From a virus, in the IMG/VR virus record IMGVR_UViG_3300038701_002052, positions 8,456-72,455 of that record: a DNA stretch of 64,000 nucleotides. One strand, 5' to 3'. The position numbers were made by a program, and so were the translations under genes. Of this stretch, positions 19,509 to 61,217 are shown in pieces. The notes beneath the pieces were generated by a model. The model was not told the origin of the DNA and searched no databases. It worked only from the letters and a program-made list of their open reading frames with translations. Each line of letters starts with the position of its first letter. The first letter of the stretch is position 1.

Positions 19509-20027
19509 ATGTTAGCCAAACTTATGGGTAACACTCCAGCCGTCGCGATCATCGGACCAGGGCACTGTGGCAAGGACACCGCCGCGGACATCATCAGCAG
19601 GCTCACCGGATTCCGGTTCCTGGGGTCCACCTCATGGCATGTGAAGGAGTTTGTCGCCCACCGCATGGGGATCAATGCCATGACCGCATGGGAGACCCGC
19701 AGGACACGGCGCAAGGACTGGCGCAGACATGTGGATTCCTACCGGGAGGGCGATCCTGCCCGCATCGTCCGCGAGATGGTGTCGGACGGGGCGGCGATCA
19801 TCACCGGCATCCGCACCCACCCGGAGCTGTCGGAATCCCTCGATGACGGGCTCATAGGCCCTGTCATCTGGATCAGCCGGGACAACTCCCCTGATCCCAC
19901 CAACGAACTTACCACCCGCGACGCAGACCACACGGTGTTCAACACCGGCACGATCGAGGACCTCAAGGACAAGCTGAGGGTGCTGCTCGCGGACATTGGT
20001 CTTTATGGGAAAAAAGCGAACCGATGA
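19509..20027 (+). CDS. Deoxynucleoside monophosphate kinase-like P-loop protein
   Basis: IIGPGHCGKDTAADII Walker A; IITGIR...E and a C-terminal FNTGTIEDL motif typical of phage dNMP kinases. Confidence 0.7.
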   Translation: MLAKLMGNTPAVAIIGPGHCGKDTAADIISRLTGFRFLGSTSWHVKEFVAHRMGINAMTAWETRRTRRKDWRRHVDSYREGDPARIVREMVSDGAAIITGIRTHPELSESLDDGLIGPVIWISRDNSPDPTNELTTRDADHTVFNTGTIEDLKDKLRVLLADIGLYGKKANR

Positions 20028-21129
20028 GGAGATCATCGCAGCCCTTCAGAACGCGAAGGGCAACCGCACGAAGGCCGCGCAGTCGCTCGGCATAGGGCGC
20101 TCCACCTTCGTTGAACGGCTTGGCCGCGTCGATCCGGACATCTGGAAGGCGGCGGCACCGATACCACCGACCCACCACTCCCCGCGCACCACGGTGCTCT
20201 ATGACGGCGATGGGAACGTGCTGCTCGAGTGGCGGAAGCTGGAGGAGACCGCGAAGGTCATGGACGGGTTCGTCAACAGCCTCTGTGAGCGCGTGAAGGG
20301 AAAGGGGCGTGCCCCTGTCAGGAAACCGCGCAAGACCGACTCCGAGGACATTCTCTTCGAGATCGACGTGGCAGACCCGCATATCGGCATGTATGCCTGT
20401 GCCGAGGAGACACGCGACCGTGACTACAACTGCGAGATCGCCACCCGGCAGGTCATCGACGGCGTGGACGCGCTGCTCATGCGGCACAACCGTCCCGACG
20501 AGATCGTGCTCACCTTCCTGGGTGACACCGCCCACTCCGACTCCCGCAACAACCAGACCGAGAAGTCGAAGAACATCCTCGACGTCGACACCCGCTACCA
20601 TCGCGTCGCGGACCACCTGACCAAGGTTGCCACTGATGCGGTGGACATGTGCGCCAGAGCCGCCTCCAGGGTCCGTGTCGTGGTCGTGGAGGGCAATCAC
20701 GACTGGCACAGCTCCGTGTGGCTTGCACGCGTCCTGTCCGCCTTCTACAGGGCCTGTCCGAACGTGGTGGTCGAACTGTCCCACTCACCCCGCAAACACC
20801 TCGTATGGGGCGATACGCTGCTTGTATGGGCACACGGGGACCAGGTCCGCATGAACCGGTGGAACGGCGTCATCACCACGGAATTCCGGAAGGAATGGGG
20901 GAGCACGCGGTTCCACCACCTCAAGCTCGGCCACGTCCACCACCAGAAGAAGATCCCACCCATGGTCATCAACGAGGACACCGGCCTCCTGATCGAATAC
21001 CTCTCACCTTCCTGCCCCTCCGATGCCTGGCATGCCGGGGCGGGATACATCGGATCACAACGCGGACTCACCGCGTTCGAATACCACAAGAAAGCGGGGC
21101 TCCTCGCCAGATACAACCACTGGACATGA
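20005..21129 (+). CDS. Calcineurin-like metallophosphoesterase with an N-terminal Fis-like HTH
   Basis: GNRTKAAQSLGIGRST HTH; DPHIG, GDTAH, GNHD, AHGD and GHVHH metal-binding motifs. Confidence 0.8.
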   Translation: MGKKRTDEEIIAALQNAKGNRTKAAQSLGIGRSTFVERLGRVDPDIWKAAAPIPPTHHSPRTTVLYDGDGNVLLEWRKLEETAKVMDGFVNSLCERVKGKGRAPVRKPRKTDSEDILFEIDVADPHIGMYACAEETRDRDYNCEIATRQVIDGVDALLMRHNRPDEIVLTFLGDTAHSDSRNNQTEKSKNILDVDTRYHRVADHLTKVATDAVDMCARAASRVRVVVVEGNHDWHSSVWLARVLSAFYRACPNVVVELSHSPRKHLVWGDTLLVWAHGDQVRMNRWNGVITTEFRKEWGSTRFHHLKLGHVHHQKKIPPMVINEDTGLLIEYLSPSCPSDAWHAGAGYIGSQRGLTAFEYHKKAGLLARYNHWT

Positions 21130-27549: not shown

Positions 27550-27974
27550 TTCTCTTCCTTCTTCTCCTGCCATTGTGCCTTGCCTATCATCGAGAGGTCA
27601 TACCCGTCCGGGTAGTCGATGATGATCGTCGTTCCTTCCTCTTCACCCTTGTGCGTCTTTTCCTGCTCGACCGTGAATCTGATGGACGCTTCTGAGTCAT
27701 CGTGTATCGCGCCAGCGTAGCACAGGGCGTCGAGTAGAAACTTGCTTCCACCGAAGGCGGCGTCTTTGTCGAGAAGGCGTTTGCGGCTTTGAACAAAGCA
27801 GACAACAGGCAATCCTGCGCGTCCCTCTTCATTCGTGTACGGTCCGCCCAGTGGGATGTCCTCGAAAGAAGGTCGTTCATCGACGGGGGTAGATAGCCAG
27901 GGATACGAATGACGATTCTTGTCGGCATCAGAAGTTCGCCGCTTCCGCGGTGTTGATGGTTTCTCGGGTTTCAA
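27546..27974 (-). CDS. RusA-like Holliday junction resolvase, C-terminal catalytic part
   Basis: RKRLLDKDAAFGGSKFLLDALCYAGAIHDDS matches the RusA DxD(N)..K...D...G...DD pattern. Confidence 0.6.
   Translation of the reverse strand: MKPEKPSTPRKRRTSDADKNRHSYPWLSTPVDERPSFEDIPLGGPYTNEEGRAGLPVVCFVQSRKRLLDKDAAFGGSKFLLDALCYAGAIHDDSEASIRFTVEQEKTHKGEEEGTTIIIDYPDGYDLSMIGKAQWQEKKEEK
27587..27928 (-). CDS. Overlapping ORF resembling the RusA-like N-terminal part
   Basis: IRIPGYLPPSMNDLL..HW.R..K; ATG coupled to the dnaB stop (TGATG). Confidence 0.45.
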   Translation of the reverse strand: MPTRIVIRIPGYLPPSMNDLLSRTSHWADRTRMKRDAQDCLLSALFKAANAFSTKTPPSVEASFYSTPCATLARYTMTQKRPSDSRSSRKRRTRVKRKERRSSSTTRTGMTSR

Positions 27975-30432
27975 AACGGGTATGCTTCTTGAAAAAGGTC
28001 AGCGGTATCAGGCCGGTCGCGCCATCACGCTGCTTCTCGATCAGGAGATCAACGGCGTGGACGTCGTCATGGTCGGCACTGTCGGGGCGGTGGAGGAAGC
28101 CGATCAGATCCGCGTCCTGCTCGATCGATCCGCTGTTATGGACAACTATGCCATTCGTAACGAAATTGTTTGTTCCTGGAACGCTTAGATCGCAAACAGA
28201 ACACTCACCAGGAACGGCATCCACGCTCCTTAGACGCCCCCAACCAAGCTCCGAACATGACATATATGGGGAGTTTTTGATCGATTGAATCATGTGGTTT
28301 TTAAGAAGCTCCTCCATGGATTTCTTACACACAGACTTAAATCCGCCTGACTTCCTCTTCTGGAACCTCATGTATCGGTTTCCGGTAATCTCGCTTGCAA
28401 GCTCTACGAATATGGATGGCGCTGGGTCTATGTATCTCGGGCTTGGTGACCTGAGGCGACCAAACCTGTCCAGATTCGAGCAAATCACTTCCATTTTCTC
28501 GTTATCCTCAACACACACCCTCACTTCCCATATATCGCTATAGTAACCAACCGTTGATCGAATTCCACAGGTAAGCAAAAGCCACGAAACCTGATTGGCA
28601 AGTAATTCACTGACGGTGGAGTATTTAGCACACCCCCTAGTAACGGTTCCGTCCGCTTCCCATAACCCCGAAAGAAGCTCGCGGTGCGATTCGTTTGATG
28701 TTCCAAGATAGTCACTTGGTATGAATTTTGAATGAGCGGTGCATCCGTCTAGCCCTAGGCTCCGAAGCCATGTCATGACAGGGTTTTGGAGACACCCGCT
28801 TCTTTTACCGTTGGACAGATATGCGTCAAAAACATTATCGCTCGGCTGGTTCTTCCTGATGTTCACACTGACACCAAACTCGGACACAGATGCAACCACT
28901 TCTTCATGGAGTTCTCTCCTGTATATCAACCCAGGCGTTCCGGACATACTGCCGTTGCCTATCAACCACCCCAGTAGCTTGGCGTGCCTGACGTGGCCTC
29001 TGTTAGCATGGGGTATCACCCTTGGCGACGCTATCACATCCCTTCCCGGTTTAAGCTGATTGACCTGCTTCCACCCTGAACCTGTAAGAACAAGATGTTT
29101 TGCGGTCGCTGAAAACGACCCGAATTGAGTGTTGACCCTGAATACCTTGTTATACCTCTTTGGGATAAACTCACACTTCCTTATTACAGTGACATCCCTG
29201 TCCAGTGAAACAACCCGATCGGGCCGACTCCCAATCCGAACCGGTCCAGTTGGTGTGTAAACCCACTCCTGCTCCGGAAGACACTCCCGGAGATCGCTCA
29301 ACCTCGGCTTGCGGTTCTTCTCCTTCTCCACGTCGCGGCTGAGCTGGCTGAGTGCGATCACCGGGACGTCCAGCTCCTTGCTCATCTCCTTCAGTCCGGA
29401 CGAGATGATCCCAACCTCCTCGGTCCGGCTCATGTTCTTGCGTCCGACACCATTGGCAAGCTGCAGGTAGTCGATCAGGATCAACCGGGTCCCGTTCTTC
29501 TGCTTCTCACGGCGTGCCCTGGAACGCATCTGGGCGATGGTCAGGCCGGGGCTGTCGTCGATCATGATCGGGTAGTTGCTCAGCCTGCCGGCCGCGCCCG
29601 TCATGCGGACATAGTCCCGCTCCGTGCAGAGACCGTTCCGCAGATCCATCATGTTCACCCGAGCCATCGACAGCACCACCCGCTGGATCAGGTTGCCCTT
29701 GCTCATCTCGAGTGAGAACACATGGCAGTGAGACCCCTTCTCCATGACCGACTCGACGATGTTCATCGCAAGAGACGTCTTCCCCATCGCCGGCCTCGCG
29801 GCGAGGATGTAGAGCTTGCCGGGGTGGAGCCCTCCCGTGATGCGGTCCAGCTTGCTGAAACCGGTGCTGAGCCCGTTCACGCCACCGTCCGCATGGGTCG
29901 CCGCCTCGATGTATTCCAATGCGCTGATGACCTCGTCCTTGATCGAGAACGTCGATTCCTTGTGGACCGCCTTCCCCACCGACCCGACCCGCTCCTCGAT
30001 CATGGACACCAGGTCCGACGTGGAAGCCTCCCGGTCGTCGATCTTTTCCGTGATCTCCGCCACCGCCGACCTGAGGTCGCGCCTCACCCAGCAGTCCACC
30101 ACCATGTTCAACCAGTACTTCAGGTTGAGCGCCGATGGCACCGAATCCAAACACTCGCTCAGATAGACGATCCCGCCGACCTGCGAAAGCAACGAGGATC
30201 CCAGCATCTCAGCGACCACCGTCTCCAGAGAGACCGGCTTGCCCGCCCTGCTCATCCTCTGGAGCAGCTTGAACAGCTCCTTGTGGCGGATGTCGAACAT
30301 CAGCTCGGCCGGGTCGGGGTGGACCGCCTCCACCTGGGCCATGCACATGCCGCAATCCAGGATCAGGCAGCCGATCAACGCACGCTCGGCATTCTCGTTG
30401 TGAGTGGGGGGAGATGTTGCTTCTTTTGACAT
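27928..30432 (-). CDS. dnaB: Replicative DNA helicase DnaB with an intein
   Basis: AERALIG, ILAARPAMGKTSLA, FSLEM, LILIDYLQL, SQLSRDVE..PRLSDLRE|intein|SGSIEQDAD. Confidence 0.95.
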   Translation of the reverse strand: MSKEATSPPTHNENAERALIGCLILDCGMCMAQVEAVHPDPAELMFDIRHKELFKLLQRMSRAGKPVSLETVVAEMLGSSLLSQVGGIVYLSECLDSVPSALNLKYWLNMVVDCWVRRDLRSAVAEITEKIDDREASTSDLVSMIEERVGSVGKAVHKESTFSIKDEVISALEYIEAATHADGGVNGLSTGFSKLDRITGGLHPGKLYILAARPAMGKTSLAMNIVESVMEKGSHCHVFSLEMSKGNLIQRVVLSMARVNMMDLRNGLCTERDYVRMTGAAGRLSNYPIMIDDSPGLTIAQMRSRARREKQKNGTRLILIDYLQLANGVGRKNMSRTEEVGIISSGLKEMSKELDVPVIALSQLSRDVEKEKNRKPRLSDLRECLPEQEWVYTPTGPVRIGSRPDRVVSLDRDVTVIRKCEFIPKRYNKVFRVNTQFGSFSATAKHLVLTGSGWKQVNQLKPGRDVIASPRVIPHANRGHVRHAKLLGWLIGNGSMSGTPGLIYRRELHEEVVASVSEFGVSVNIRKNQPSDNVFDAYLSNGKRSGCLQNPVMTWLRSLGLDGCTAHSKFIPSDYLGTSNESHRELLSGLWEADGTVTRGCAKYSTVSELLANQVSWLLLTCGIRSTVGYYSDIWEVRVCVEDNEKMEVICSNLDRFGRLRSPSPRYIDPAPSIFVELASEITGNRYMRFQKRKSGGFKSVCKKSMEELLKNHMIQSIKNSPYMSCSELGWGRLRSVDAVPGECSVCDLSVPGTNNFVTNGIVVHNSGSIEQDADLIGFLHRPDSADHDDVHAVDLLIEKQRDGATGLIPLTFFKKHTRFETRETINTAEAANF
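28135..29283 (-). mobile_element. Intein (383 aa) with a LAGLIDADG homing endonuclease
   Basis: Starts CLPEQEWV and ends NFVTNGIVVHN before Ser; LLGWLIGNGS and LLSGLWEADG blocks; visibly AT-richer than the extein. Confidence 0.92.
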
Positions 30433-34785: not shown

Positions 34786-35016
34786 ATGAAAATCTTTTTC
34801 GCAATAACAATTGTAGTCACACTCATCTTTTCCCCGTGGGAGGAACAATTCCAGACCAGACCACCAAGGACCGTCATCAGTCCGATATGGGACGCACCGG
34901 TCGCCTCGGAACTTCGAATTGATGTCATCGCCGTCGAGTGGGTCGGGCTGGGGCTCATCTACCTGGCCTTGTCCGGCAGGAAACCAAGACCCGCCGACGG
35001 GGAGGCTGTTGACTGA
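34786..35016 (+). CDS. Small 2-TM protein (lysogen-expressed/exclusion candidate)
   Basis: Two TM segments; lies between the repressor and attP. Confidence 0.45.
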   Translation: MKIFFAITIVVTLIFSPWEEQFQTRPPRTVISPIWDAPVASELRIDVIAVEWVGLGLIYLALSGRKPRPADGEAVD

Positions 35017-35280
35017 TTGTTGACCCGTTTTGAGGCCGAACTCGCTTCAATTCACTCCAATTCCTCACTCGCGCCGAATCCGGCTTTCGCCCGTAACTCG
35101 CTGAAACACCAACCCGTTAAGCCACTTCCATCACCCCACCCACCAATCCCCGTCCCGGTTTCCGGAACCGTAGGTTGTGGGTTCGATCCCCGCCCCGCGT
35201 ACCACTCCCCACCAAGGACTTGCGAAGATTCTGGAAGATGGCTAAAACTCACCCGTTGACTGATTGTTGACCCGTTTTGA
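35008..35280 (+). mobile_element. attP region: 26-bp direct arm repeats flanking a tRNA-derived core
   Basis: GTTGACTGATTGTTGACCCGTTTTGA at 35008-35033 and 35255-35280, immediately upstream of the integrase. Confidence 0.8.
35156..35204 (+). tRNA. 3' part of tRNA-Arg(CCG) serving as the attP core (not a complete tRNA)
   Basis: CGGT-TTCCGGA-ACCG anticodon arm, AGGTT variable loop, GTGGG-TTCGATC-CCCGC T arm, CCCGCGT-A-CCA end; no 5' half or D arm. Confidence 0.8.
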
Positions 35281-35293
35281 ACCAGAAGCCAAC

Positions 35294-36412
35294 ATGCTGA
35301 AGAAATTCAAGACCCGTATCGGGAAGGAAACCGTTCGAGGTGTGAAGAGGTTCACACTGAATACCACTGACCCGTCAGGGAAGCGGACTCGGAAGTTTTT
35401 CAACTCACTCAAGGAGGCCAGGGACGCTGAGAAGCTCCTGTGGCTGGACTACAACGAACACGGTGCGCGTGACCTCAACCTGTCCCACGAGGACCGCCTG
35501 AGATTCGTCACGCTCGACCGTCAATGCAGGAAGGTGGGGACCACGCTCGAGAAGGCTGTTGAGATCGGCCTGGGCTCGTTGGTGGCCCCGGATCCGATCG
35601 CCCTCAAAGAGGGCATGGACGCCTACATCCAGTCGAAGGTCAACCGGCGCTGCAGGCCCCGCACCGTCCAGACGGTCCTGTCCAGGATCCGGCAGCTCGT
35701 GGAGATGATGCCGAAGGATGCCATGTGCAGCGACGTCACACCGGCCATGCTGCGAGACATGGTCCACCGGAACGGCTGGAGCCCCATGACCATGAGGAAC
35801 CGCATGGTCGAGTACGGCGCATTCTTCAGGTGGCTCGTCCGGAACGCCCACATGGCAAACAACCCGGCCGAGCACATGGACAGGATCATTGTCGACCCCA
35901 CCCCGCCTCGCGTCCTGACACCTGAAGAGCTTCGAAGGCTGCTTGGTTGGTGCTGGGAGAACGACCGCGGCATGGCCGGCTGGATCGCGATCGGGGCGTT
36001 CTGCGGAATACGACCAGCCGAGATCAACAGGCTCCCACCACAAAACATCGATCTGAAATCGAAGGTGGTCCTGGTGGAAAGCACTAAGATCAGGGACAAC
36101 CGTTACGTCGACATCCCTGACAATGCGATCCCGTGGCTAGGCGAATTTTCAACAAAGGGATCAAGGAAGCGGTTCGAGAAGGCACGAAGAGAGACCGGGT
36201 TGCTCGATGACTGGCCACCTGACGGACTCAGGAACTCGTGCGCGAGCTACTACGCGGCGCTGTGGGGTGTCGACAAATCAAAGGATCGCCTGGGCCACAA
36301 GGGCGACTCCAGGACGTTCTTCGTCCACTACCGAGTGCCCGTGTTGAAGGATGCGGCAGAGGAATGGTTCAGGATAACACCGGAAGCGACAGGTTGCCCC
36401 ATTACCACCTAA
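35294..36412 (+). CDS. int: Tyrosine integrase
   Basis: GIRPAEI (R), STK (K), DGLRNS, LGH, HY; adjacent to attP. Confidence 0.9.
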   Translation: MLKKFKTRIGKETVRGVKRFTLNTTDPSGKRTRKFFNSLKEARDAEKLLWLDYNEHGARDLNLSHEDRLRFVTLDRQCRKVGTTLEKAVEIGLGSLVAPDPIALKEGMDAYIQSKVNRRCRPRTVQTVLSRIRQLVEMMPKDAMCSDVTPAMLRDMVHRNGWSPMTMRNRMVEYGAFFRWLVRNAHMANNPAEHMDRIIVDPTPPRVLTPEELRRLLGWCWENDRGMAGWIAIGAFCGIRPAEINRLPPQNIDLKSKVVLVESTKIRDNRYVDIPDNAIPWLGEFSTKGSRKRFEKARRETGLLDDWPPDGLRNSCASYYAALWGVDKSKDRLGHKGDSRTFFVHYRVPVLKDAAEEWFRITPEATGCPITT

Positions 36413-36420
36413 AACGTGCC

Positions 36421-36708
36421 TCATGGCATGTTATCCGCATTCTCACTTCGCATATTAACACTGTTCGACATACAGATCCGCAGTCCGAGTTCCTCCATGA
36501 TCTGCCGAGCCTCGTCTGCGACCACGCGGCTTTTGACCTTGGATCGCTCGTTTTGTCGCGATGCCTCCCGGACGATGCACTCCATGAGTAGCAGTTGATT
36601 TTCCAGCAGTGTCGCCATGCCGAAGCACACGATAGATAGCCATTCCTCATGAGTCTTGGCTGCGTCAGTCAGTTGGATTGCAAAGTTTTCAGTGCCAATG
36701 GATGCCAT
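36421..36708 (-). CDS. Hypothetical cassette protein
   Basis: ATG lies 3 nt after the attC-like site. Confidence 0.55.
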   Translation of the reverse strand: MASIGTENFAIQLTDAAKTHEEWLSIVCFGMATLLENQLLLMECIVREASRQNERSKVKSRVVADEARQIMEELGLRICMSNSVNMRSENADNMP

Positions 36709-36711
36709 AAT

Positions 36712-36807
36712 GCCGAACCAGTTCGTGCAGCCAACCCCTACCGGGCCGCGTCTTTTGTGTTGGTTGAGTCGTCAGCCGGTAGGGGCGGCTGACGAAGGTC
36801 GTTCGGC
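36712..36807 (+). mobile_element. Integron attC-like site (96 bp)
   Basis: R'' GCCGAAC ... R' GTTCGGC; arms TTCGT(G)CAGCCA(A)CCCCTACCGG and CCGGTAGGGGCGGCTGACGAA pair, leaving extrahelical G and A. Confidence 0.8.
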
Positions 36808-36810
36808 GAA

Positions 36811-37179
36811 TCAAAGATCGTGCGCTTTGAGTGCATCCACGACCTCCTTTTTGGCTCCAAGAATCTCGCGGAAGAAGTCGCTCCACTTCATTCCTTGAAG
36901 CCGCTTGTGGTGTTTCGCGCTGGAGACGAGTTCTTCTTCCGTCTCGCCGCTGGCGACCGTCTCTTCGTGGAGGTGTTCCCAATCGAGCGCATTACCGTCT
37001 TGATCGACCCATTGGCCGGGATCGTCCTTGGTGTGTCGCTTGTAGCCAAGCACGAGGAACATCTTGCCCGCTGGCGTCGAGATTCTGGCCTCGTCAGCAT
37101 TGGGGAACATCCGCCGAAAACGCCGAACAAGTCGCGGCAGGTCAACCGCTGCCCGCGGGTCAGTTTTCTGTGTTTTCAT
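36811..37179 (-). CDS. Hypothetical cassette protein
   Basis: Bounded by two attC-like sites; its N-terminus (AVDLPRLVRR) is encoded by an attC arm. Confidence 0.6.
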   Translation of the reverse strand: MKTQKTDPRAAVDLPRLVRRFRRMFPNADEARISTPAGKMFLVLGYKRHTKDDPGQWVDQDGNALDWEHLHEETVASGETEEELVSSAKHHKRLQGMKWSDFFREILGAKKEVVDALKAHDL

Positions 37180-37223
37180 AGTCTTTTGGCGCGGGCATCG
37201 GTGCCTGCGCTTTGGCGTTCTCT
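37122..37223 (+). mobile_element. Integron attC-like site (102 bp)
   Basis: R'' GCCGAAC-AAGTCGCGGCAGGTCAACCGCTGCCCGCG ... CGCGGGCATCGGTGCCTGCGCTTTGGC-GTTCTCT R'; extrahelical G, T and A. Confidence 0.8.
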
Positions 37224-37354
37224 CTTAAAACTTCTGATAGTCCACCCCTGAAAGCCGTGACTGGCTCGTTCCCCGCTGGCTCATTATCGTAGATAAATCT
37301 TTCAAGGGCGGTTAAAGGCTCTGTGGTTTTTGTATGGCTCCAGATTCGTGTCAT
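37160..37354 (-). CDS. Hypothetical cassette protein
   Basis: LTALERFIYDNEPAG; C-terminus ENAKAQAP comes from the attC arm. Confidence 0.55.
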   Translation of the reverse strand: MTRIWSHTKTTEPLTALERFIYDNEPAGNEPVTAFRGGLSEVLRENAKAQAPMPAPKDYENTEN

Positions 37355-37356
37355 GA

Positions 37357-37659
37357 TCACTCGCCCTTTCCCCAAAACCAGATTTCATCACCAGGTTCGG
37401 CTTCGATGCCCCATCCGTGAACCTCTGGGTCGTAATTGACCTGCGAACACAGACCGGCTTGCTTGGCCAGCGGTAGCACGTCCTCACTCCACTCGTCCGA
37501 GCAGAAGTGCGCCGTGTCCATGCATAGGCAATCACAGCCAGCCTCGGGGCCGCATGTACCTTGGTGTGCGGGCTCAGGAATCACGCCGTGATTTAGCACA
37601 GACATTGTCCACTCCAGTCTTTTGCGGAGGTTTTTGATTAGTTCAGTGTCGTTCATCAT
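37357..37659 (-). CDS. Hypothetical Cys/His-containing protein
   Basis: ORF in the leftward cluster. Confidence 0.5.
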   Translation of the reverse strand: MMNDTELIKNLRKRLEWTMSVLNHGVIPEPAHQGTCGPEAGCDCLCMDTAHFCSDEWSEDVLPLAKQAGLCSQVNYDPEVHGWGIEAEPGDEIWFWGKGE

Positions 37660-37940
37660 TCAAACTTGGGTGTGTTGTGAAGCTCTGTCAGCTCCCGCGT
37701 CATCCACTCGATACGGGTCCGGATCTGGTCGTTCGCGTCAGCCACCGCAGCCTCACGCGTGGCCCACAGCCACCGGACGTTGATGGGCTTGGGCGAGACG
37801 CGTCCCTCAAGAATGCAGACACCCTTGCCGCTCGTCGCCAGGGACCGGTAGATCACCTTTTCAATGCCGTCCTTCAACGCGTTCTCCGTGGTGTGGAGCG
37901 TCTGTCCTGGAATGAGTTCCCTTGCTTCCTGATTGGTCAT
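37656..37940 (-). CDS. Hypothetical protein
   Basis: First ORF of the leftward cluster. Confidence 0.5.
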   Translation of the reverse strand: MTNQEARELIPGQTLHTTENALKDGIEKVIYRSLATSGKGVCILEGRVSPKPINVRWLWATREAAVADANDQIRTRIEWMTRELTELHNTPKFE

Positions 37941-38008
37941 TTTAGTCTGAATTCACTGGTTGACGAATACCGGAAGTTAGCCCAAAGTTGGGCTAACGCA
38001 AATAAAAA

Positions 38009-38488
38009 ATGCAGCTCAAAGTAATCTCACCCACCATCACGCTCGACATCACCGGTGCCTACGCCAGCGGAGACGTTCTATTCGGACTGACAGCGATCCC
38101 CAACCGCGGCGGCTTCTCGAACGGTGTCGCCAACATGCTGCGGACGGTCACCGTGATCGACCGCTACAACCAGGCCCCCGAATTCGACCTCGTCCTCTTT
38201 GACTGCGACGCAGGCGACCCCACCCTGGCAGCCGCAAACGCCGCATGGACGCTGACAGCGGACCACGGCGAGAAGATCATCAATTTCGTCGACGTGGACG
38301 CGGCTGACTACGGCTCGATCGCCGCAACCGGCGGAGCGGTCCGCATCGCCCACTTCTCCGGCCTTCAGATCCCGATCAACACGGATACGTTGAAGATCGC
38401 AGGCATCTCCAGAGGCACTCCAAACTACGCCTCAGGATCCGCCACCACTGATTTCGTCATCCGCCTTGGCATCGACCAGAGCATCTGA
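38009..38488 (+). CDS. Beta-rich protein resembling small phage virion/decoration proteins
   Basis: AYASGDVL...VTVID...FDLVLF...AANAAWTLT pattern; core-like GC content. Confidence 0.4.
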   Translation: MQLKVISPTITLDITGAYASGDVLFGLTAIPNRGGFSNGVANMLRTVTVIDRYNQAPEFDLVLFDCDAGDPTLAAANAAWTLTADHGEKIINFVDVDAADYGSIAATGGAVRIAHFSGLQIPINTDTLKIAGISRGTPNYASGSATTDFVIRLGIDQSI

Positions 38489-38543
38489 CACCCATTTCCA
38501 ACCGGAGGAAGGCACCCCACCCGCGTTTCATACTCAGCACCCC

Positions 38544-38801
38544 ATGGACGCTTCGACCCTTCCGAATCCCCGAGTCCAGACAACCCGCCCCTCGCGAACG
38601 GCCCCTCCGGTTGGATCCCAATCTCAGCAACAGCGCGTCAGAAAATGCGCCATGTGCCCCTCCTGCGGCACCACCCAGTCAAACGTCCTGTTCGGCAGGC
38701 TGAAGAAGGACGGAACCCTAAGGCGACGGCGTCACTGCCTCGGTTGCGGGGAAAGGTTCACCACCATTGAAGTCGCGACCCAATTCCTCAAATCACGTTG
38801 A
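38544..38801 (+). CDS. NrdR-like zinc-ribbon protein (no ATP cone)
   Basis: MCPSCG...RRRRHCLGCGERFTTIE. Confidence 0.65.
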   Translation: MDASTLPNPRVQTTRPSRTAPPVGSQSQQQRVRKCAMCPSCGTTQSNVLFGRLKKDGTLRRRRHCLGCGERFTTIEVATQFLKSR

Positions 38802-39078
38802 ACTGGTCGCCAGGCCCACAACGTCAGGCAGATGGGCCATCTGGACAGCCCTCGCCTGGACCCGACTCCGCACAGGTGACCTCCTGCTCGCCTACAACCT
38901 CTTCAAGTCCGACCCCGGACAAGGCAGCTTCCTCGAGATGAAACGGGACCTGGACCGCGTGGGCATGGGTCCGGAATGGAAGACCGAGGAGGACGCAAAC
39001 ACAGCCATCGCATGCTTCAACGCCTACACGTCCCAGAAATGGGCCAAGAAGCGTGCTGTGAGGCGTAAGAATACCTGA
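38767..39078 (+). CDS. Hypothetical protein
   Basis: ORF overlapping the upstream gene. Confidence 0.45.
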   Translation: MKSRPNSSNHVELVARPTTSGRWAIWTALAWTRLRTGDLLLAYNLFKSDPGQGSFLEMKRDLDRVGMGPEWKTEEDANTAIACFNAYTSQKWAKKRAVRRKNT

Positions 39079-41115: not shown

Positions 41116-41149
41116 GGCTATCAGATACCTCAAATACGATATGAAGTGG

Positions 41150-41233
41150 TCATAACGACCAACGAACCAATGGCTATGAATGCACAAGAAAACTCCGACG
41201 AGGTGGGTATTGATGTCCAACGCCTTGTTCGCC
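41150..41233 (-). mobile_element. Degenerate/hybrid attC-like site
   Basis: R'' GGCGAAC-AAGGCGTTGGACATCAA ... TTGGTC-GTTATGA R'; arms pair poorly. Confidence 0.5.
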
Positions 41234-41499
41234 GCTTGATGGATACCGTGGAAACTACCGCCATGGAATACCCGCCGTTCTGCAAAGATGTGAGGCATGC
41301 GTGTCTCGAACTTGAACGCCTCAACCAATGGAAAAGGGAAGGGATGCGGGTTTTGGGAGAGTGGGAATCCGTATGGGTTGCCGCTGGATCACCGGGAAGA
41401 TTGGGGCAATCCAAAGCAGAAGCGGTGCGAGAACTTATTGCCGCCCAACTACACATATCCTCCCACAGCCACAACACCGGGGAACACAATTTCAAATGA
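41176..41499 (+). CDS. Hypothetical cassette protein
   Basis: N-terminus IDVQRLVRR comes from the attC arm; ERLNQWKREGMRVLGEWE. Confidence 0.55.
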   Translation: MNAQENSDEVGIDVQRLVRRLMDTVETTAMEYPPFCKDVRHACLELERLNQWKREGMRVLGEWESVWVAAGSPGRLGQSKAEAVRELIAAQLHISSHSHNTGEHNFK

Positions 41500-54644: not shown

Positions 54645-55022
54645 ATGCCGAAGCTTGGATTTGAAATCACCGTTCCCGACGATGAGCTTGAGAAGGCCCT
54701 GGAGTCGGACGAGATCTACCTCGACCTGACCTACCGCCTTGAGACCATCATCAAGGAGAGGGTCGTGAAGGCGGGTGGATGGGAGTCCACCGAGGCGTAT
54801 CGCCGGATGAAGCACCGGGTTGACATGGCGAAGGAGCGCCTTGACAAGTGCATCGAGCAGTTCGAGAAGAAGAAGGCATGGCACCTAGATCGCAAGAAGA
54901 GCTACACGCGTGTCTTGAAGCTGCGGGAAGGGAGAAAGATGGTGATCGCCCAGCGCCTTCAGGCCCAGATCCTGAAGCGTAAGGATGCCCCGCAGAAATA
55001 CCGTGAAAAAGGAACCACATGA
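54645..55022 (+). CDS. Basic coiled-coil hypothetical protein
   Basis: Operator 5 nt upstream; coupled to the recombinase. Confidence 0.55.
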   Translation: MPKLGFEITVPDDELEKALESDEIYLDLTYRLETIIKERVVKAGGWESTEAYRRMKHRVDMAKERLDKCIEQFEKKKAWHLDRKKSYTRVLKLREGRKMVIAQRLQAQILKRKDAPQKYREKGTT

Positions 55023-56110
55023 ACACATTGATCCGCCGTAACAACGGCTACTATTACGCTAGACTGGACGGGGAGGGAGGGACAAGGTATCTCTCGATGA
55101 AGACCCGTAACAAAGAGACGGCGAAGAAACGCGCCGCCAGTGCCGGCATTGACGAGATGAACGAGGCATCCAGGGCGGGGTCGCTCCGCGGACGTGCCTT
55201 CTCCACGCTCAACACCGGCCGCGTTTCCAGTCTCGTTGAGGCTCGTGACATGTGGGTCGATTGGTTGGACGCGAGTGGATCAAAGTCCGGCAAGACCGTG
55301 CTGAACTACAGCCAGCTCGTCGATGGGTTCCTGAAGGACACCGGGCTTGGTAAACGTCCGGCATCGGACCTCAATGCTGATCGCATCAACGGCTGGATCA
55401 ACAACCCGGAATGGGGGGCCAAGCGCACCACGCGACTTTCCGCGCTGGCGGCGTTGAGGAAGTGGGTCGAGTGGATGGGGGTCATGGGCATGGTGCCCGC
55501 TGGCATCGGGAAGATGTGCTACGTCGACGTGAGGTCCCTGCCCCACGCTCAGAAGGAGTCCATCCCCCACCGACCGATCACCCATGAGGAATATATGGCG
55601 CTGCTCACCGTGCTGGATGGTAAGCGCAATCCGTTCTACGCCATCGCGGCGAGGCTCGCGTGGGAGTCCGGGTTGCGGCTCTCCGACACGGCCACCCTCG
55701 AGTGGGACAGCTTTCATTGGGATGAATCAGGAGGCAGTCATCTGGTGGTGTGGACGCGCAAGCGGTCACGGCGCATCAACGTCCCCATGACGGACGAGCT
55801 GTGCGACATCTACGACATGATCCCCCAGGAGGTGTCAGATGGCAGGTTCTGCTTCCCTGATGAGGCACAGGCTGTCATGAAAAACCAGTCCGCCAAGCTG
55901 TCCACGTTCTTCGGGCGTGCGTTCAAGGAGGCGGACATTCCGGGCGCGTCCTTCCATTGCCTGCGGACGTCATTCGCCCAGCGCATGCGCCGCGAGGGGC
56001 GGCCGGACCAATGGATCGCACTGATCCTCGGCCACACGGACCACGCCACCACCCAGGGCTACCTGAATGCCGATCCGAAACCGGTCAAGAAGACGAAAGG
56101 TGGGAAATGA
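55019..56110 (+). CDS. Second tyrosine recombinase
   Basis: SGLRLSD (R), TRK, FHCLRTS (HxxR), LGH, TQGY; N-terminal YYAR arm-binding-like segment. Confidence 0.9.
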   Translation: MNTLIRRNNGYYYARLDGEGGTRYLSMKTRNKETAKKRAASAGIDEMNEASRAGSLRGRAFSTLNTGRVSSLVEARDMWVDWLDASGSKSGKTVLNYSQLVDGFLKDTGLGKRPASDLNADRINGWINNPEWGAKRTTRLSALAALRKWVEWMGVMGMVPAGIGKMCYVDVRSLPHAQKESIPHRPITHEEYMALLTVLDGKRNPFYAIAARLAWESGLRLSDTATLEWDSFHWDESGGSHLVVWTRKRSRRINVPMTDELCDIYDMIPQEVSDGRFCFPDEAQAVMKNQSAKLSTFFGRAFKEADIPGASFHCLRTSFAQRMRREGRPDQWIALILGHTDHATTQGYLNADPKPVKKTKGGK

Positions 56111-56114
56111 AATT

Positions 56115-56705
56115 ATGAAACAACCAACGACTCGAGAGAACAACCCGGATAGCCAGCTCGCTTTGGCTGAAGCTCGTGGTTCGGAGAACTATGTTTCATT
56201 TCTAATATGCTTCCGAACTACCGCAGAAATATACAGGAACGGACTGCCGCTCGGCGTGGTGAGAGATGGAAGATTCGAGCCACACGAGTACACGCTGCCA
56301 GATGGCTCGAAGCGGGAGGTAGCACTGGACACCGCGCTTGCGGCGCAAGTAATCAAAGCTGTGAACTCGATGTGTCCGACGAGCGACTTAGGTATGCCAG
56401 CCCTCCGACCAGAAAAGATTATGACACCAGAAACGAAATCACCACCAGAAACGCCAACCGAAGCCCCAGCGGGTAAGGGTTTGGCATCACCGCCTTGTTC
56501 TCCGTTGGTTGAAAATCTGGCGGCGAAAGGAGTATTCAAGGGATTCCACGGCCTAGAGGGATTGGTAAACTCTCAAGAGTTTTGGGACAAGCAACCTTAC
56601 GGAACTCGCCTCTACTACGGCGATGAGATCGGGGATTACTTGCACCGCTCGATTCTCGAAACAGCCGTCGAGATTTTGAAGGAGAACGAGAAAGGTCATC
56701 GATGA
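56115..56705 (+). CDS. Probable fusion of two cassette ORFs reading through an attC-like site
   Basis: Internal attC at 56374-56503 with an internal ATG (MTPETKS); both termini derive from attC arms. Confidence 0.5.
   Translation: MKQPTTRENNPDSQLALAEARGSENYVSFLICFRTTAEIYRNGLPLGVVRDGRFEPHEYTLPDGSKREVALDTALAAQVIKAVNSMCPTSDLGMPALRPEKIMTPETKSPPETPTEAPAGKGLASPPCSPLVENLAAKGVFKGFHGLEGLVNSQEFWDKQPYGTRLYYGDEIGDYLHRSILETAVEILKENEKGHR
56374..56503 (-). mobile_element. attC-like site (130 bp; R' core mutated to GTC)
   Basis: GGAGAAC-AAGGCGGT(G)ATGCCA(A)ACCCT ... AGGGCTGGCATACC..GTCGGAC. Confidence 0.7.
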
Positions 56706-56811
56706 GCCGCTATAGCAGACACAACCCCGAAGAACCAACCAGGCACGACTGGACGGCAGGCGGACGAAAGCCGGAAGCGCAAGGCTCATTCGCTGCACCG
56801 TCTGGTTCGGC
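56681..56811 (-). mobile_element. attC-like site (131 bp)
   Basis: GCCGAAC-CAGACGGT(G)CAGCG(A)ATGAGCC ... GGCTCATCGATGACCTTTCTC-GTTCTCC. Confidence 0.8.
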
Positions 56812-56998
56812 GCGGTGGAGTGTCAGTCTGGACTGCGACTGTCCGAAATGCGGGAAGCATGTGAACCTGCTCGACGCTCCCGACTTCTGGGATGGGAGAA
56901 CGCTCAACATCCCGGAACACGGGACGGAAAACAGCGATAACTTAGAAGTGCGATGCCCGGAATGCGACCATGAGTTCAATGTATGCTGCGAATGGTGA
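56702..56998 (+). CDS. Zinc-finger cassette protein
   Basis: CPKCG...CPECD; starts inside the attC loop. Confidence 0.55.
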   Translation: MSRYSRHNPEEPTRHDWTAGGRKPEAQGSFAAPSGSARWSVSLDCDCPKCGKHVNLLDAPDFWDGRTLNIPEHGTENSDNLEVRCPECDHEFNVCCEW

Positions 56999-57547: not shown

Positions 57548-57801
57548 AGAAAGACGATGGTCTCCGTTGGATGTGCCGACTTGTTCGGTGGGTGTCCGCA
57601 TGGGCATGGAGTCACGAGATACGGAAAGCAAAGGACTTCGAGCGGGTCAGGGACGACAAGTGGCGGTATCGCGTGGCGCTGGAAAACGTCATTGAAAGCG
57701 CGACCCCAAGAAAGCGGGACAACCCGAAAATGCACGCAGCATGGAAAGCTGCCGATGCCGCGCTTTATCCACCGGACGAACAAACTGACACATCGAAATG
57801 A
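57544..57801 (+). CDS. Hypothetical protein
   Basis: Coupled ORF; ends inside a degenerate attC. Confidence 0.5.
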   Translation: MKKDDGLRWMCRLVRWVSAWAWSHEIRKAKDFERVRDDKWRYRVALENVIESATPRKRDNPKMHAAWKAADAALYPPDEQTDTSK

Positions 57802-57843
57802 AGCGAAGCGAAATGCAGGTTGATGACCAGCGCCTTGCCCACC
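57771..57843 (-). mobile_element. Degenerate attC-like site
   Basis: ACCGGAC-GAACAAACTGACACATC ... GATGACCAGCGCCTT-GCCCACC; resembles the arm at 41212-41233. Confidence 0.4.
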
Positions 57844-57986
57844 TCTGCGAAACGATCAAGGTGTGGTGGGAGGAGCACAGATTCGACACGGCAGGTGACT
57901 ATGGTGAATGGAATGTCTACGACAGTGAACCGTCATTCGTGGAGGAAGCCAAAGCCGTGGTTGGCGACTGGGAATCTCAAAGCTGA
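57798..57986 (+). CDS. Hypothetical protein
   Basis: Starts inside the attC-like loop. Confidence 0.5.
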   Translation: MKRSEMQVDDQRLAHLCETIKVWWEEHRFDTAGDYGEWNVYDSEPSFVEEAKAVVGDWESQS

Positions 57987-59636: not shown

Positions 59637-61217
59637 GTGAGTGACCCGCAGGATTTCGACCCGTCCAAGCCGTGGGAGCCTGACCAGGGTCCTTCGCAGC
59701 GCAAGGCGTTCCATGACTCCACCCCGATGCTCCTGCTCGAGGGCATGAAGGGGTCGGGCAAGACCAACGTCGCGCTCGACAAGGTGGTCCGTCATCAGGT
59801 GGAGAACCCGAACGCGCTTTCACTCATCATCTCCCCCACGGCGGCGGGTGGCAAGCTGGGTGTGCTCGACGAGCTGGAGCGCATCGTCCTGCCAAAGTGG
59901 AAATACGGGAATCGAGACTACACGGGCGGGCAGTTCGGCCCGTTGCTTGATCGGGGTATCGGGCTCCAGTTCACCGACCCCAAGGAGGACAGCAAGACCA
60001 AGGACATGACACTGCGGGTCCGGTCGCTTCACGAGCAGTCGACCAATCCCGACAAGTGGGGGAAGGTCGTCTTCAAGTCCATCCCTCACGCCCACCTGGT
60101 CAAGGAGCGCATCTACGCGATCTCGCCGTCGCAGGTCATGGTCGACGAGATCACGAACACCTCGGGTCCGGAGTATCTCACCCACCCAGCGGCACAGCTT
60201 GGGCGTCGTGCCGGCATTGCCGGGGTTCAGCAGTTCATCGGCACCTGCAACCCGGCCGGCCCGAGCCATTGGGTCTATGACCGCTGGCACCGGATTCCGT
60301 TTGACGAGGACGGGAAATACAAGGACAAGGCCAGCAGGAACTACCGGTTCATCTTCATCCCGGTCACGGAGAATGTCCACCGGATGCCTCCTGGTTACGC
60401 TGAGAATCTGGAAGCAATCTTCTCATCGAACCGCGTCGAGTATCAGAGAATGGTTGAGGGGTTGTGGGTCGACATGCAGGATGGGAATTCAATCTTCGTC
60501 GATTCGTATGTTGATGAACTCCATGTCATGGGCGACGCGGGCAAGGGCACTGGAATCATCCCACTCAAGGGGCACACGGTCTATGTAGGCATGGATCCGG
60601 GAGTGGCGAACTTCTGTGCGTCCTTCCTGCAGCGGGTCAATGTCGGGGACTCCTATGTCTGGTTGCAGTTCGACGAGCTGAACTACGTCGGCAAGCGCAC
60701 GCCTTATGACAAGGTTTGTGCGGACATGGCCGACGTGCTGGACTACTGGTCGGAGAAGGTCGGCGAGGAGCTTCCATGCCGCTTCATCGCCGACGCGGAT
60801 GCCTTCACCCGTCGGAACACCAGCGGCGGCTTCGAGGCTGCCGAGATCGAGTCACACATCAACAACCGAATCACCTCCCGTGGCCTGTCCATACGACGTG
60901 CCAGGCTGGAAAAATGCCCCAAGGGAAAGGGGTCGGTCGCCACCCGCGTCCGCATTCTTCAGGATCTTCTCATTCAGGAGCGGTATCTTCTGTCCGCCAT
61001 GTGCCCCAAGACACGGGACATGTTCATGTACCTGAAATCCAAACTGCCGAAGGAAGGGGTCTACAGCCCCGATGACGGCTTTCTTCCCATGCGCTCGCCG
61101 CAGCTTCACCAGTTCGACTCCACCACCTACCCCATACTTAAGATAGAAAACTCGGTCGTCTCCACGAGCACAGGCTCGGTCACGCCCCGTGTTTATGCTT
61201 GCGGCGGGTCACGCTGA
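59637..61217 (+). CDS. terL: Terminase large subunit
   Basis: EGMKGSGKT Walker A, VMVDEIT Walker B, TCNPAGPSHWV, YVGMDPG nuclease motif. Confidence 0.9.
   Translation: MSDPQDFDPSKPWEPDQGPSQRKAFHDSTPMLLLEGMKGSGKTNVALDKVVRHQVENPNALSLIISPTAAGGKLGVLDELERIVLPKWKYGNRDYTGGQFGPLLDRGIGLQFTDPKEDSKTKDMTLRVRSLHEQSTNPDKWGKVVFKSIPHAHLVKERIYAISPSQVMVDEITNTSGPEYLTHPAAQLGRRAGIAGVQQFIGTCNPAGPSHWVYDRWHRIPFDEDGKYKDKASRNYRFIFIPVTENVHRMPPGYAENLEAIFSSNRVEYQRMVEGLWVDMQDGNSIFVDSYVDELHVMGDAGKGTGIIPLKGHTVYVGMDPGVANFCASFLQRVNVGDSYVWLQFDELNYVGKRTPYDKVCADMADVLDYWSEKVGEELPCRFIADADAFTRRNTSGGFEAAEIESHINNRITSRGLSIRRARLEKCPKGKGSVATRVRILQDLLIQERYLLSAMCPKTRDMFMYLKSKLPKEGVYSPDDGFLPMRSPQLHQFDSTTYPILKIENSVVSTSTGSVTPRVYACGGSR

Follow-up and report, generated by a model that had tools for sequence, protein, structure and literature searches.

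Integron recombination sites in phages are the subject of recent and rare reports, in which the cassettes lie in the usual orientation. Qi et al. (2023, PMC9892861) identified CALINs, which are groups of attC sites without an integron integrase, in 17 of 10,705 phage genomes, and their attC x attI1 assays were positive. Ghaly et al. (2021, PMC8352920) recognized the taxon-specific attC type of the sedentary chromosomal integrons of Planctomycetota, and a further study observed cassette insertion outside att sites (attG) in bacterial genomes when the integron integrase, IntI, was supplied (10.1101/2022.09.11.507474). We have analysed a 64,000-nucleotide stretch of viral DNA (bases 8456-72455 of the IMG/VR record IMGVR_UViG_3300038701_002052; hereafter the window, whose positions are used throughout) in which small genes are separated by long hairpins. 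An initial annotation, made from the letters alone, had read these hairpins as attC sites and knew of no prior description of such a system in tailed phages; a prior description does exist, in the published phage CALINs. Our results suggest, with a probability of roughly 0.7, that the four hairpins are integron attCs of the type found in Planctomycetota and neighbouring phyla, that they form two IntI-less arrays (CALINs) with a phage recombinase beside each, and that the cassettes are moved by the IntI of a host.

Candidate attC sites and the strand of their genes

The hairpins were assessed with a surrogate covariance model, R1, built from an alignment (A2) of 12 attCs adjoining IntI in two Planctomycetota metagenome-assembled genomes (MAGs); the training set held host attCs only and zero phage sequences. 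Scanning the 64-kb window with filters off, R1 gave four full-length matches with E-values (approximate, following a shortened calibration) of 4e-14 to 2.6e-5, while the next best had an E of 0.27. Two matches lie on the minus strand, attC 1 at 36712..36807 (59.1 bits, E 4e-14) and attC 2 at 37122..37223 (27.0 bits, E 2.6e-5), and two on the plus strand, attC 3 at 56378..56503 (27.0 bits, E 2.6e-5) and attC 4 at 56681..56811 (40.1 bits, E 6.8e-9); in each case this is the strand that carries the attC bottom strand. Even with filters off, the opposite strand gave no R1 match at any of the four places. The initial annotation had named the same four sites, with coordinates within four bases of ours, and had proposed a scan of both strands with an attC model as a check; a model that had seen only host sites thus bears out its main claim, each site matching on one strand only. 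The best site in the window scores level with host attCs. Candidate "mini-attC" sites at about 27.0-27.2 kb were rejected, as R1 gave them just 8 bits (E 3-4).

Sites known from integrons carry extrahelical bases on the L'' arm and have the boxes R' = RYYYAAC and R'' = GTTRRRY (PMC5027507). On their bottom strands, the sites of the window bear extrahelical bases in the L'' arm; the central spacer is unpaired, and the terminal loop is variable, with about 30 nt in attC 1 and up to about 80 nt in the second cluster. In attC 1, the boxes are GCCGAAC (R') and GTTCGGC (R''); an additional C and a TT opposite G occur in the 3' arm of its bottom strand, and its spacers are of 4 nt versus 3 nt. The initial annotation had described an extrahelical G in L'' with a further bulged base; both bulges are present, but the base is a C on the bottom strand and a G only on the top strand, as it is in host attCs. 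The single-strand folds of attC 1 and attC 2 are far more stable than those of dinucleotide shuffles on both strands (z of -4.5/-4.85 and -4.1/-3.9, respectively; 0 of 200 shuffles). Free energies for attC 3 and attC 4, at 56.4-56.8 kb, do not stand out from shuffles (z from +2.1 to -0.4) because their loops are long.

An alignment of 19 phage sites (A3), including three of the four in the window (37122-37223 was left out), allowed base pairing to be examined across relatives. In this alignment, which was fitted to R1 and is hence biased towards the model, 89% of cells are paired and compensatory changes occur in 14 of 17 pairs; this was equalled by 0 of 500 shuffles, and slid controls reached 26-49%. 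The outer AAC/GTT pairs are kept almost without exception (A-U in 19 of 19 sites, A-U in 18 with G-U in one, and C-G in 19 of 19).

The arm-end pattern of these sites occurs also in MAGs assigned to Rhodopirellula, other Planctomycetota, Abditibacteriaceae and Verrucomicrobiota. Five MAGs were searched with the IntI model TIGR02249 (cut-off, 265 bits); four of the five that carry this attC type contain IntI or fragments of it and the fifth does not. Full IntIs were found in Abditibacteriaceae (428 bits) and Verrucomicrobiota (327 bits), and a Planctomycetota MAG has partial IntIs at contig ends. In a Rhodopirellula contig (L054), six hairpins at 1.9-6.0 kb lie directly upstream of an intI fragment at 7.2-8.1 kb and include the ..TCAGCC../..GGCTG-C-A.. 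inner stem seen in attC 1 of the window; the open reading frames (ORFs) that separate these hairpins are encoded on the opposite strand, and a HicA/HicB pair, recognized by eye from the translations, is among them. A second Planctomycetota contig (L055) has at least six such sites upstream of a partial intI. In the Abditibacteriaceae contig L052, which was outside the input of R1, the model matches four sites upstream of an intact IntI, all on the intI strand. Two observations on these contigs may be added. Positions 1870-8070 of L054 have the appearance of a chromosomal integron with intI in two frames (224 and 102 bits), probably a pseudogene or a sequencing frameshift. The arm ends AGAACGAYCAAG ... 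CTTGTTCGG are closely alike in L052, L043, L040 and L032 (Abditibacteriaceae), L037 (Verrucomicrobiota) and L033 and L036 (Planctomycetota); either this attC type is common across phyla or some of the contigs are mis-binned.

These results bear on whether the hairpins might have nothing to do with integrons and instead be phage boundary elements, such as the promoter early stem-loops (PeSLs) of T4-type phages, or terminators or palindromes resembling miniature inverted-repeat transposable elements. Like PeSLs, the hairpins are located at gene junctions and form the borders of modules that are shuffled (PMC2839356). However, a model derived from IntI-adjacent host attCs matches them in a strand-specific manner with E down to 4e-14, no T-run follows the stems, and the same family occurs in canonical arrays beside intI. 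A non-integron origin is already contradicted by these findings, and we consider it very improbable.

The strand of the genes is a feature in which the window departs from host integrons. In a canonical integron the strand of intI carries the attC bottom strand, and this is the orientation of R1; the location of the extra bases on the 3' (L'') arm agrees with it. The bottom strand of attCaadA7 (PMC9892861, supplement) has the same geometry as that of attC 1. In six host arrays the ORFs have the canonical orientation, opposite the bottom strand. In both clusters of the window and in the related viral loci L003, L004, L008, L012, L021, L022 and L026, the ORFs are on the model strand, as they mostly are in L019 by rough ORF calls; hence, the phage cassettes are inverted, which upholds the earlier claim that the genes run on the attC bottom strand. 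A canonical cassette, with a top-strand ORF followed by its attC, was found neither in the clusters of the window nor in the related phage loci. In gene sense, a phage cassette has the attC first, with a start codon usually in the loop, then the gene and a terminal RYYYAA.

The source of the window is a linear IMG/VR viral record of 77,266 bp, 87% complete according to CheckV, and the phage is temperate and comes from an algae-associated metagenome. A linear metagenomic contig of this completeness could in principle contain host DNA by misassembly, or chromosome flanking a prophage, and the attC clusters might then not belong to the phage. We regard this as the least credible of the explanations considered. 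Both clusters are bracketed by phage genes, namely an exonuclease (19996-21129), a DnaB-type helicase/primase (27928-30432) and the large terminase (59637-61217); an independent algae metagenome from another study contains 96% of the sampled words of the stretch at high depth; and the inverted arrangement recurs in several other viral contigs. Scans of the window for tRNAs and Rfam families gave no match, and a set of 50,697 phage records contained no BLASTN match to the region.

A gene-plus-attC unit in several phage contexts

The 122-aa cassette ORF (36811..37179, minus strand) has attC 2 upstream and the box TTCGCCGAAC downstream. We consider the ORF real because 15 homologues were retrieved, with identities of 52-100%; the one at 100% is the product of the window itself. 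An antisense ORF at 36820-37251, favoured by a gene caller based on third-position G+C content, was rejected: it is the minus-strand ORF that has the 15 homologues, and L003 has no long antisense ORF. The AlphaFold2 model of the 122-aa protein (predicted local distance difference test score, 83.6) has a helix, a three-stranded sheet and three helices, and a fold search of this model against the PDB and AlphaFold clusters returned no significant match.

There are at least six contexts in which this gene and its upstream attC occur together. Beyond the stop codon, five contexts share T(G/A)A..TCGCCGAAC and then diverge completely. Comparison of the 40 nt before the box end with the 40 nt after it gave identities of 97 and 15% for the window and L004, 90 and 15% for the window and L005, 93 and 15% for L004 and L005, and 78 and 33% for L012 and L017. 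The upstream break between L003 and L008 is as sharp, with 100% identity over the 20 nt after the GAAC of the 5' arm and 20% before it. A second branch of the family has the box within the ORF as CAG CCG AAC (..QPN), and its three members have three unrelated tails. The initial annotation had reasoned that relatives should gain or lose genes exactly at the crossover; in the relatives examined, gain and loss do end exactly at the AAC/GTT box.

The hairpin at the upstream junction is kept in the window, L003, L004, L008 and L012 despite unrelated upstream genes, and across these five its inner and middle stems show compensatory changes. Further copies of the arm-end pattern are present in viral contigs, where downstream genes unrelated to one another use all three frames of the 3' arm; therefore, the conserved unit is DNA and not a peptide. 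We had also considered that the GTTCGGC box might consist merely of codons for an RLVRR peptide. This was rejected as the whole story, given that other genes use the two other frames, though RLVRRF persists in the 122-aa family even in L010, which has lost the box. The 5' arm is always in the same frame in unrelated upstream ORFs (L003, L004, L012, L021, L022, L026 and the window at 37217-37223), reading ..E/Q-N-D-Q.. or, in the window, ..E-N-A-K.., with the AAC of the R' box as the Asn codon. A constraint on stop codons does not explain this preference.

In the reading that we favour, a phage cassette, in gene sense, runs from the C of an R' box through the attC hairpin and the ORF to the next RYYYAA. 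The preceding ORF crosses the 5' arm and stops in or just past the loop, so that stop and start codons overlap. An integron integrase of the host would cut and insert such cassettes on the folded bottom strand at AA|C, and small accessory genes would thereby be transferred among phages with common hosts; the same hairpin, in mRNA, may couple translation of the neighbouring genes. Membership of the attC family, the lack of IntI in the phages and its presence in MAGs with this attC type, the inverted genes and the breakpoints at the box are observed directly, whereas the acting enzyme, present-day activity and translational coupling are inferred.

Genes of the two clusters and decayed sites

The first cluster contains, apart from the 122-aa gene, two ORFs on the minus strand. 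A 95-aa cassette ORF (36421..36708) ends in ...ADN|MP*, with a GGATAAC box 9 nt ahead of its stop, and has neither a Pfam or PHROG match nor relatives in viral contigs. A 71-aa ORF (37160..37375), for which no homologue was found elsewhere, takes its final 18 codons, past ...LREN, from the 5' arm and loop of attC 2. The loop of attC 2 contains the stop of this ORF (37160) and the start of the 122-aa ORF (37179), and its 3' arm is translated as AVDLPRLVRR. By comparison, attC 1 is wholly intergenic, spanning the gap from the stop of the 122-aa ORF to the start of the 95-aa ORF.

A lone R-type box, GTTATCC (36430..36436, plus strand), probably marks the left boundary of the array, 18 nt from the stop codon of the adjoining integrase gene; the same type of box is present in the host attC Pla1. 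At the ends of the array, the 95-aa ORF reads ..GAT AAC|ATG CCA TGA and the 71-aa ORF reads ..GAG AAC|GCC... Joining both ORFs at AAC would give, in frame and at 18 nt from the integrase stop, a putative ancestral ..LREN-MP*, which is the trace expected if two cassettes had been inserted at a plain GTT site. A sister phage with an empty site was not found with the integrase and the 71-aa ORF as probes; the integrase probe detected no near relatives in viral contigs and, in metagenome contigs, one relative of 30% identity without attC.

In the second cluster, the reading frame continues across attC 3, so that two ORFs form a single one of 212 aa. At attC 4, stop and start codons overlap as ATGA at 56702-56705, and the site codes for residues 1-36 of a 98-aa zinc-ribbon ORF (56702..56998, plus strand). 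Homologues of the zinc-ribbon protein in 12 other viral contigs mostly align only from about residue 36, the end of the attC, and have no attC. The earlier description of stop and start codons inside the loop, with arms translated into protein termini, fits attC 2 and attC 4; attC 3 is read through, and attC 1 lies between genes.

Two additional places had been listed initially as degenerate sites, of which one is a recognizable relic. The site at 41150..41233 (plus strand) has lost the L' arm but retains both R boxes, the loop and the L'' arm; it codes for the N terminus (..IDVQRLVRRL) of the ORF at 41146-41499, and a 75-nt portion of positions 41140-41240 shares about 80% identity (z, 27) with an arm-deleted attC of the phage locus L005. 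The other, at 57771..57843 (plus strand), is a weak remnant, a 19-nt piece of an L'' arm (57760-57850; z, 6). Neither folds or matches R1 (E>10), and the relic cannot fold. The variant without the L' arm, in which the R' box runs straight onto the loop, is found in two phages with different genes (window 41146-41499 and L005 3560-3660); this deletion derivative is either itself spread or old. Possible scars of cassette loss were noted at two places. Within the first ORF past the second recombinase of the window, at 56150-56190, GTTCGG and AGAAC stand back to back (GGTTCGGAGAAC), and L058 has a similar GGTTCGGAGAA upstream of its zinc-ribbon homologue; both may be scars of this kind.

Two observations on the surroundings of the first cluster can be recorded. 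In run X2, a second algae metagenome, the summed word depth over window positions 35000-39000 is about 3000, and unitigs end at or beside both attCs (36708/36740 and 37131); these breaks at cassette borders may reflect strain-level variation and are not evidence of recombination. Just past the cluster, a small ORF at 38466-38801 has an NrdR-like zinc ribbon (PF22811, E 1.4e-12).

The acting enzyme and comparison with known systems

Each of the two clusters contains at least two close attCs, 315 nt and 178 nt apart, and the 77-kb record contains no IntI but just two ordinary recombinases; these features define a CALIN, and the initial annotation had called the system CALIN-like. A complete integron, with an intI encoding the IntI-specific domain and an attI, was not found. 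The first recombinase, a tyrosine integrase (35264..36412, plus strand; PF00589), is convergent with the cassette genes and scores 23.6 bits with TIGR02249; the second (55019..56110, plus strand; phrog_1) lies directly upstream of the second cluster and scores 17.1 bits, both against a cut-off of 265. The IntI-specific block (KYP..W.W.FP...RHH) is present in the host IntIs and absent from recombinase 2; the alignment of recombinase 1 is poor at this block, and its sequence shows nothing of the kind. The earlier statement that neither protein is an IntI is therefore sustained, clearly so for recombinase 2. IntI was also not found in five related viral records, two of which are at least 96% complete.

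It is nonetheless conceivable that one of the phage's own tyrosine recombinases, and not a host IntI, recombines the hairpins. Both clusters adjoin a recombinase gene, and the related locus L008 has the same layout. The IntI-specific block is needed to bind a folded attC, and it was seen in neither protein; both fall far under the IntI threshold; and accessory genes are commonly located beside phage integrases. We consider recombination by the phage's own enzyme improbable.

Several results count against the reading of the hairpins as attCs whose cassettes are moved by a host IntI. No relative of the 122-aa family was found in 185,579 species genomes, and no relative of the phage terminase was found in the five attC-bearing MAGs; the most obvious candidate hosts are Pirellulales from macroalgae. 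Excised circles, for which the initial annotation had proposed a search, and joints of cassette deletion were not seen in Logan contigs of two metagenomes. The boxes of the window (GCCGAAC, AGAGAAC and GGAGAAC with GTTCGGC) are one position off RYYYAAC/GTTRRRY, and the extrahelical base is C and not the usual G. One attC with a mutated R' box (attC 3, GAGC instead of GAAC) and two relics indicate that part of the system is decaying. IntI-adjacent host attCs show the identical box departure and extrahelical C; the box departure is therefore a property of this attC type.

The signs of decay raise the question of whether the hairpins are fossils of a past host integron that now act only as RNA or DNA hairpins in expression, through translational coupling or transcript stability, and no longer recombine. 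None of the six viral records has an IntI, attC 3 is read through in frame at a mutated box, two sites are relics, the loops hold start and stop codons, and contig-level data showed no recombination joints; all of this speaks for fossils. On the other hand, an attC-plus-gene unit that appears in at least six neighbourhoods with breaks exactly at the box is difficult to reconcile with inert sites, as are stems preserved by compensatory changes though they constrain two coding regions, and a best site whose 59 bits equal host attCs. We therefore regard fossil sites as unlikely, and favour attCs whose cassettes are moved by a host IntI.

A more far-reaching proposal, which we put forward tentatively and do not consider probable, is that phages of Planctomycetota and their neighbours keep a pool of "antisense" cassettes, that an SOS-induced IntI of the host shuffles these between phage genomes, and that the attC doubles as a coupling hairpin and a source of protein termini. 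If this were true, the antisense cassettes would be silent once in a host integron and expressed only in a phage, and integron recombination would drive phage mosaicism at gene boundaries. The SOS response induces IntI as well as prophages. If a host IntI does act, as in the reading that we favour, it would provide a site-specific mechanism for the long-noted mosaic boundaries in phage genomes and would link the SOS response to exchange of phage accessory genes.

Among known systems, the phage CALINs (PMC9892861) are similar in having at least two close attCs, no IntI and small accessory genes flanked by the sites, with a host IntI as the presumed enzyme; the related locus L004 has an N6_N4 DNA methyltransferase beside its attC, as in that study. 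They differ in that the ORFs described here are on the bottom strand, with the attC before the gene, stop and start codons inside the attC, and arms that are translated. In addition, the attCs here are of the Planctomycetota type, and phage-to-phage cassette exchange is supported by breakpoints. That report describes neither an inverted, attC-first layout with partial translation of the site nor breakpoints between phages, and a limited literature search found nothing else of this kind. The present case adds an uncultivated phage lineage with attCs of the type of its presumed host; genes on the recombinogenic strand in all phage loci examined, each preceded by an attC that is translated in part; and one gene-plus-attC unit that has moved among six or more phage contexts, the breaks falling exactly at the crossover box.

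The sites themselves have the architecture of those of the Planctomycetota integrons (PMC8352920), with which they share GCCGAAC/CAGAAC, GAxx, ..TCAGCC.., ..GGCTG-C-A.. and GTTCGGC/GTTCTG as well as the extrahelical C on the L'' arm. Host arrays stand beside intI and have top-strand ORFs each followed by an attC, whereas intI is missing from the phage, in which the genes are inverted. PeSL cassettes of T4-type phages (PMC2839356, PMC4122927) likewise have conserved stem-loops at gene boundaries that delimit shuffled modules. PeSLs, however, are promoter-plus-terminator motifs thought to recombine by homology, while the present hairpins are homologous to attCs: they have AAC/GTT boxes and bulge on one arm, and the breaks fall at a single nucleotide position. 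Finally, insertion at attG (10.1101/2022.09.11.507474) would explain how an array came to lie at a plain GTT in the 3' end of a phage gene, with flanking ORFs that both read ..N|.. in the same frame; that process was observed with IntI supplied, whereas its counterpart here is deduced from the letters of the locus.

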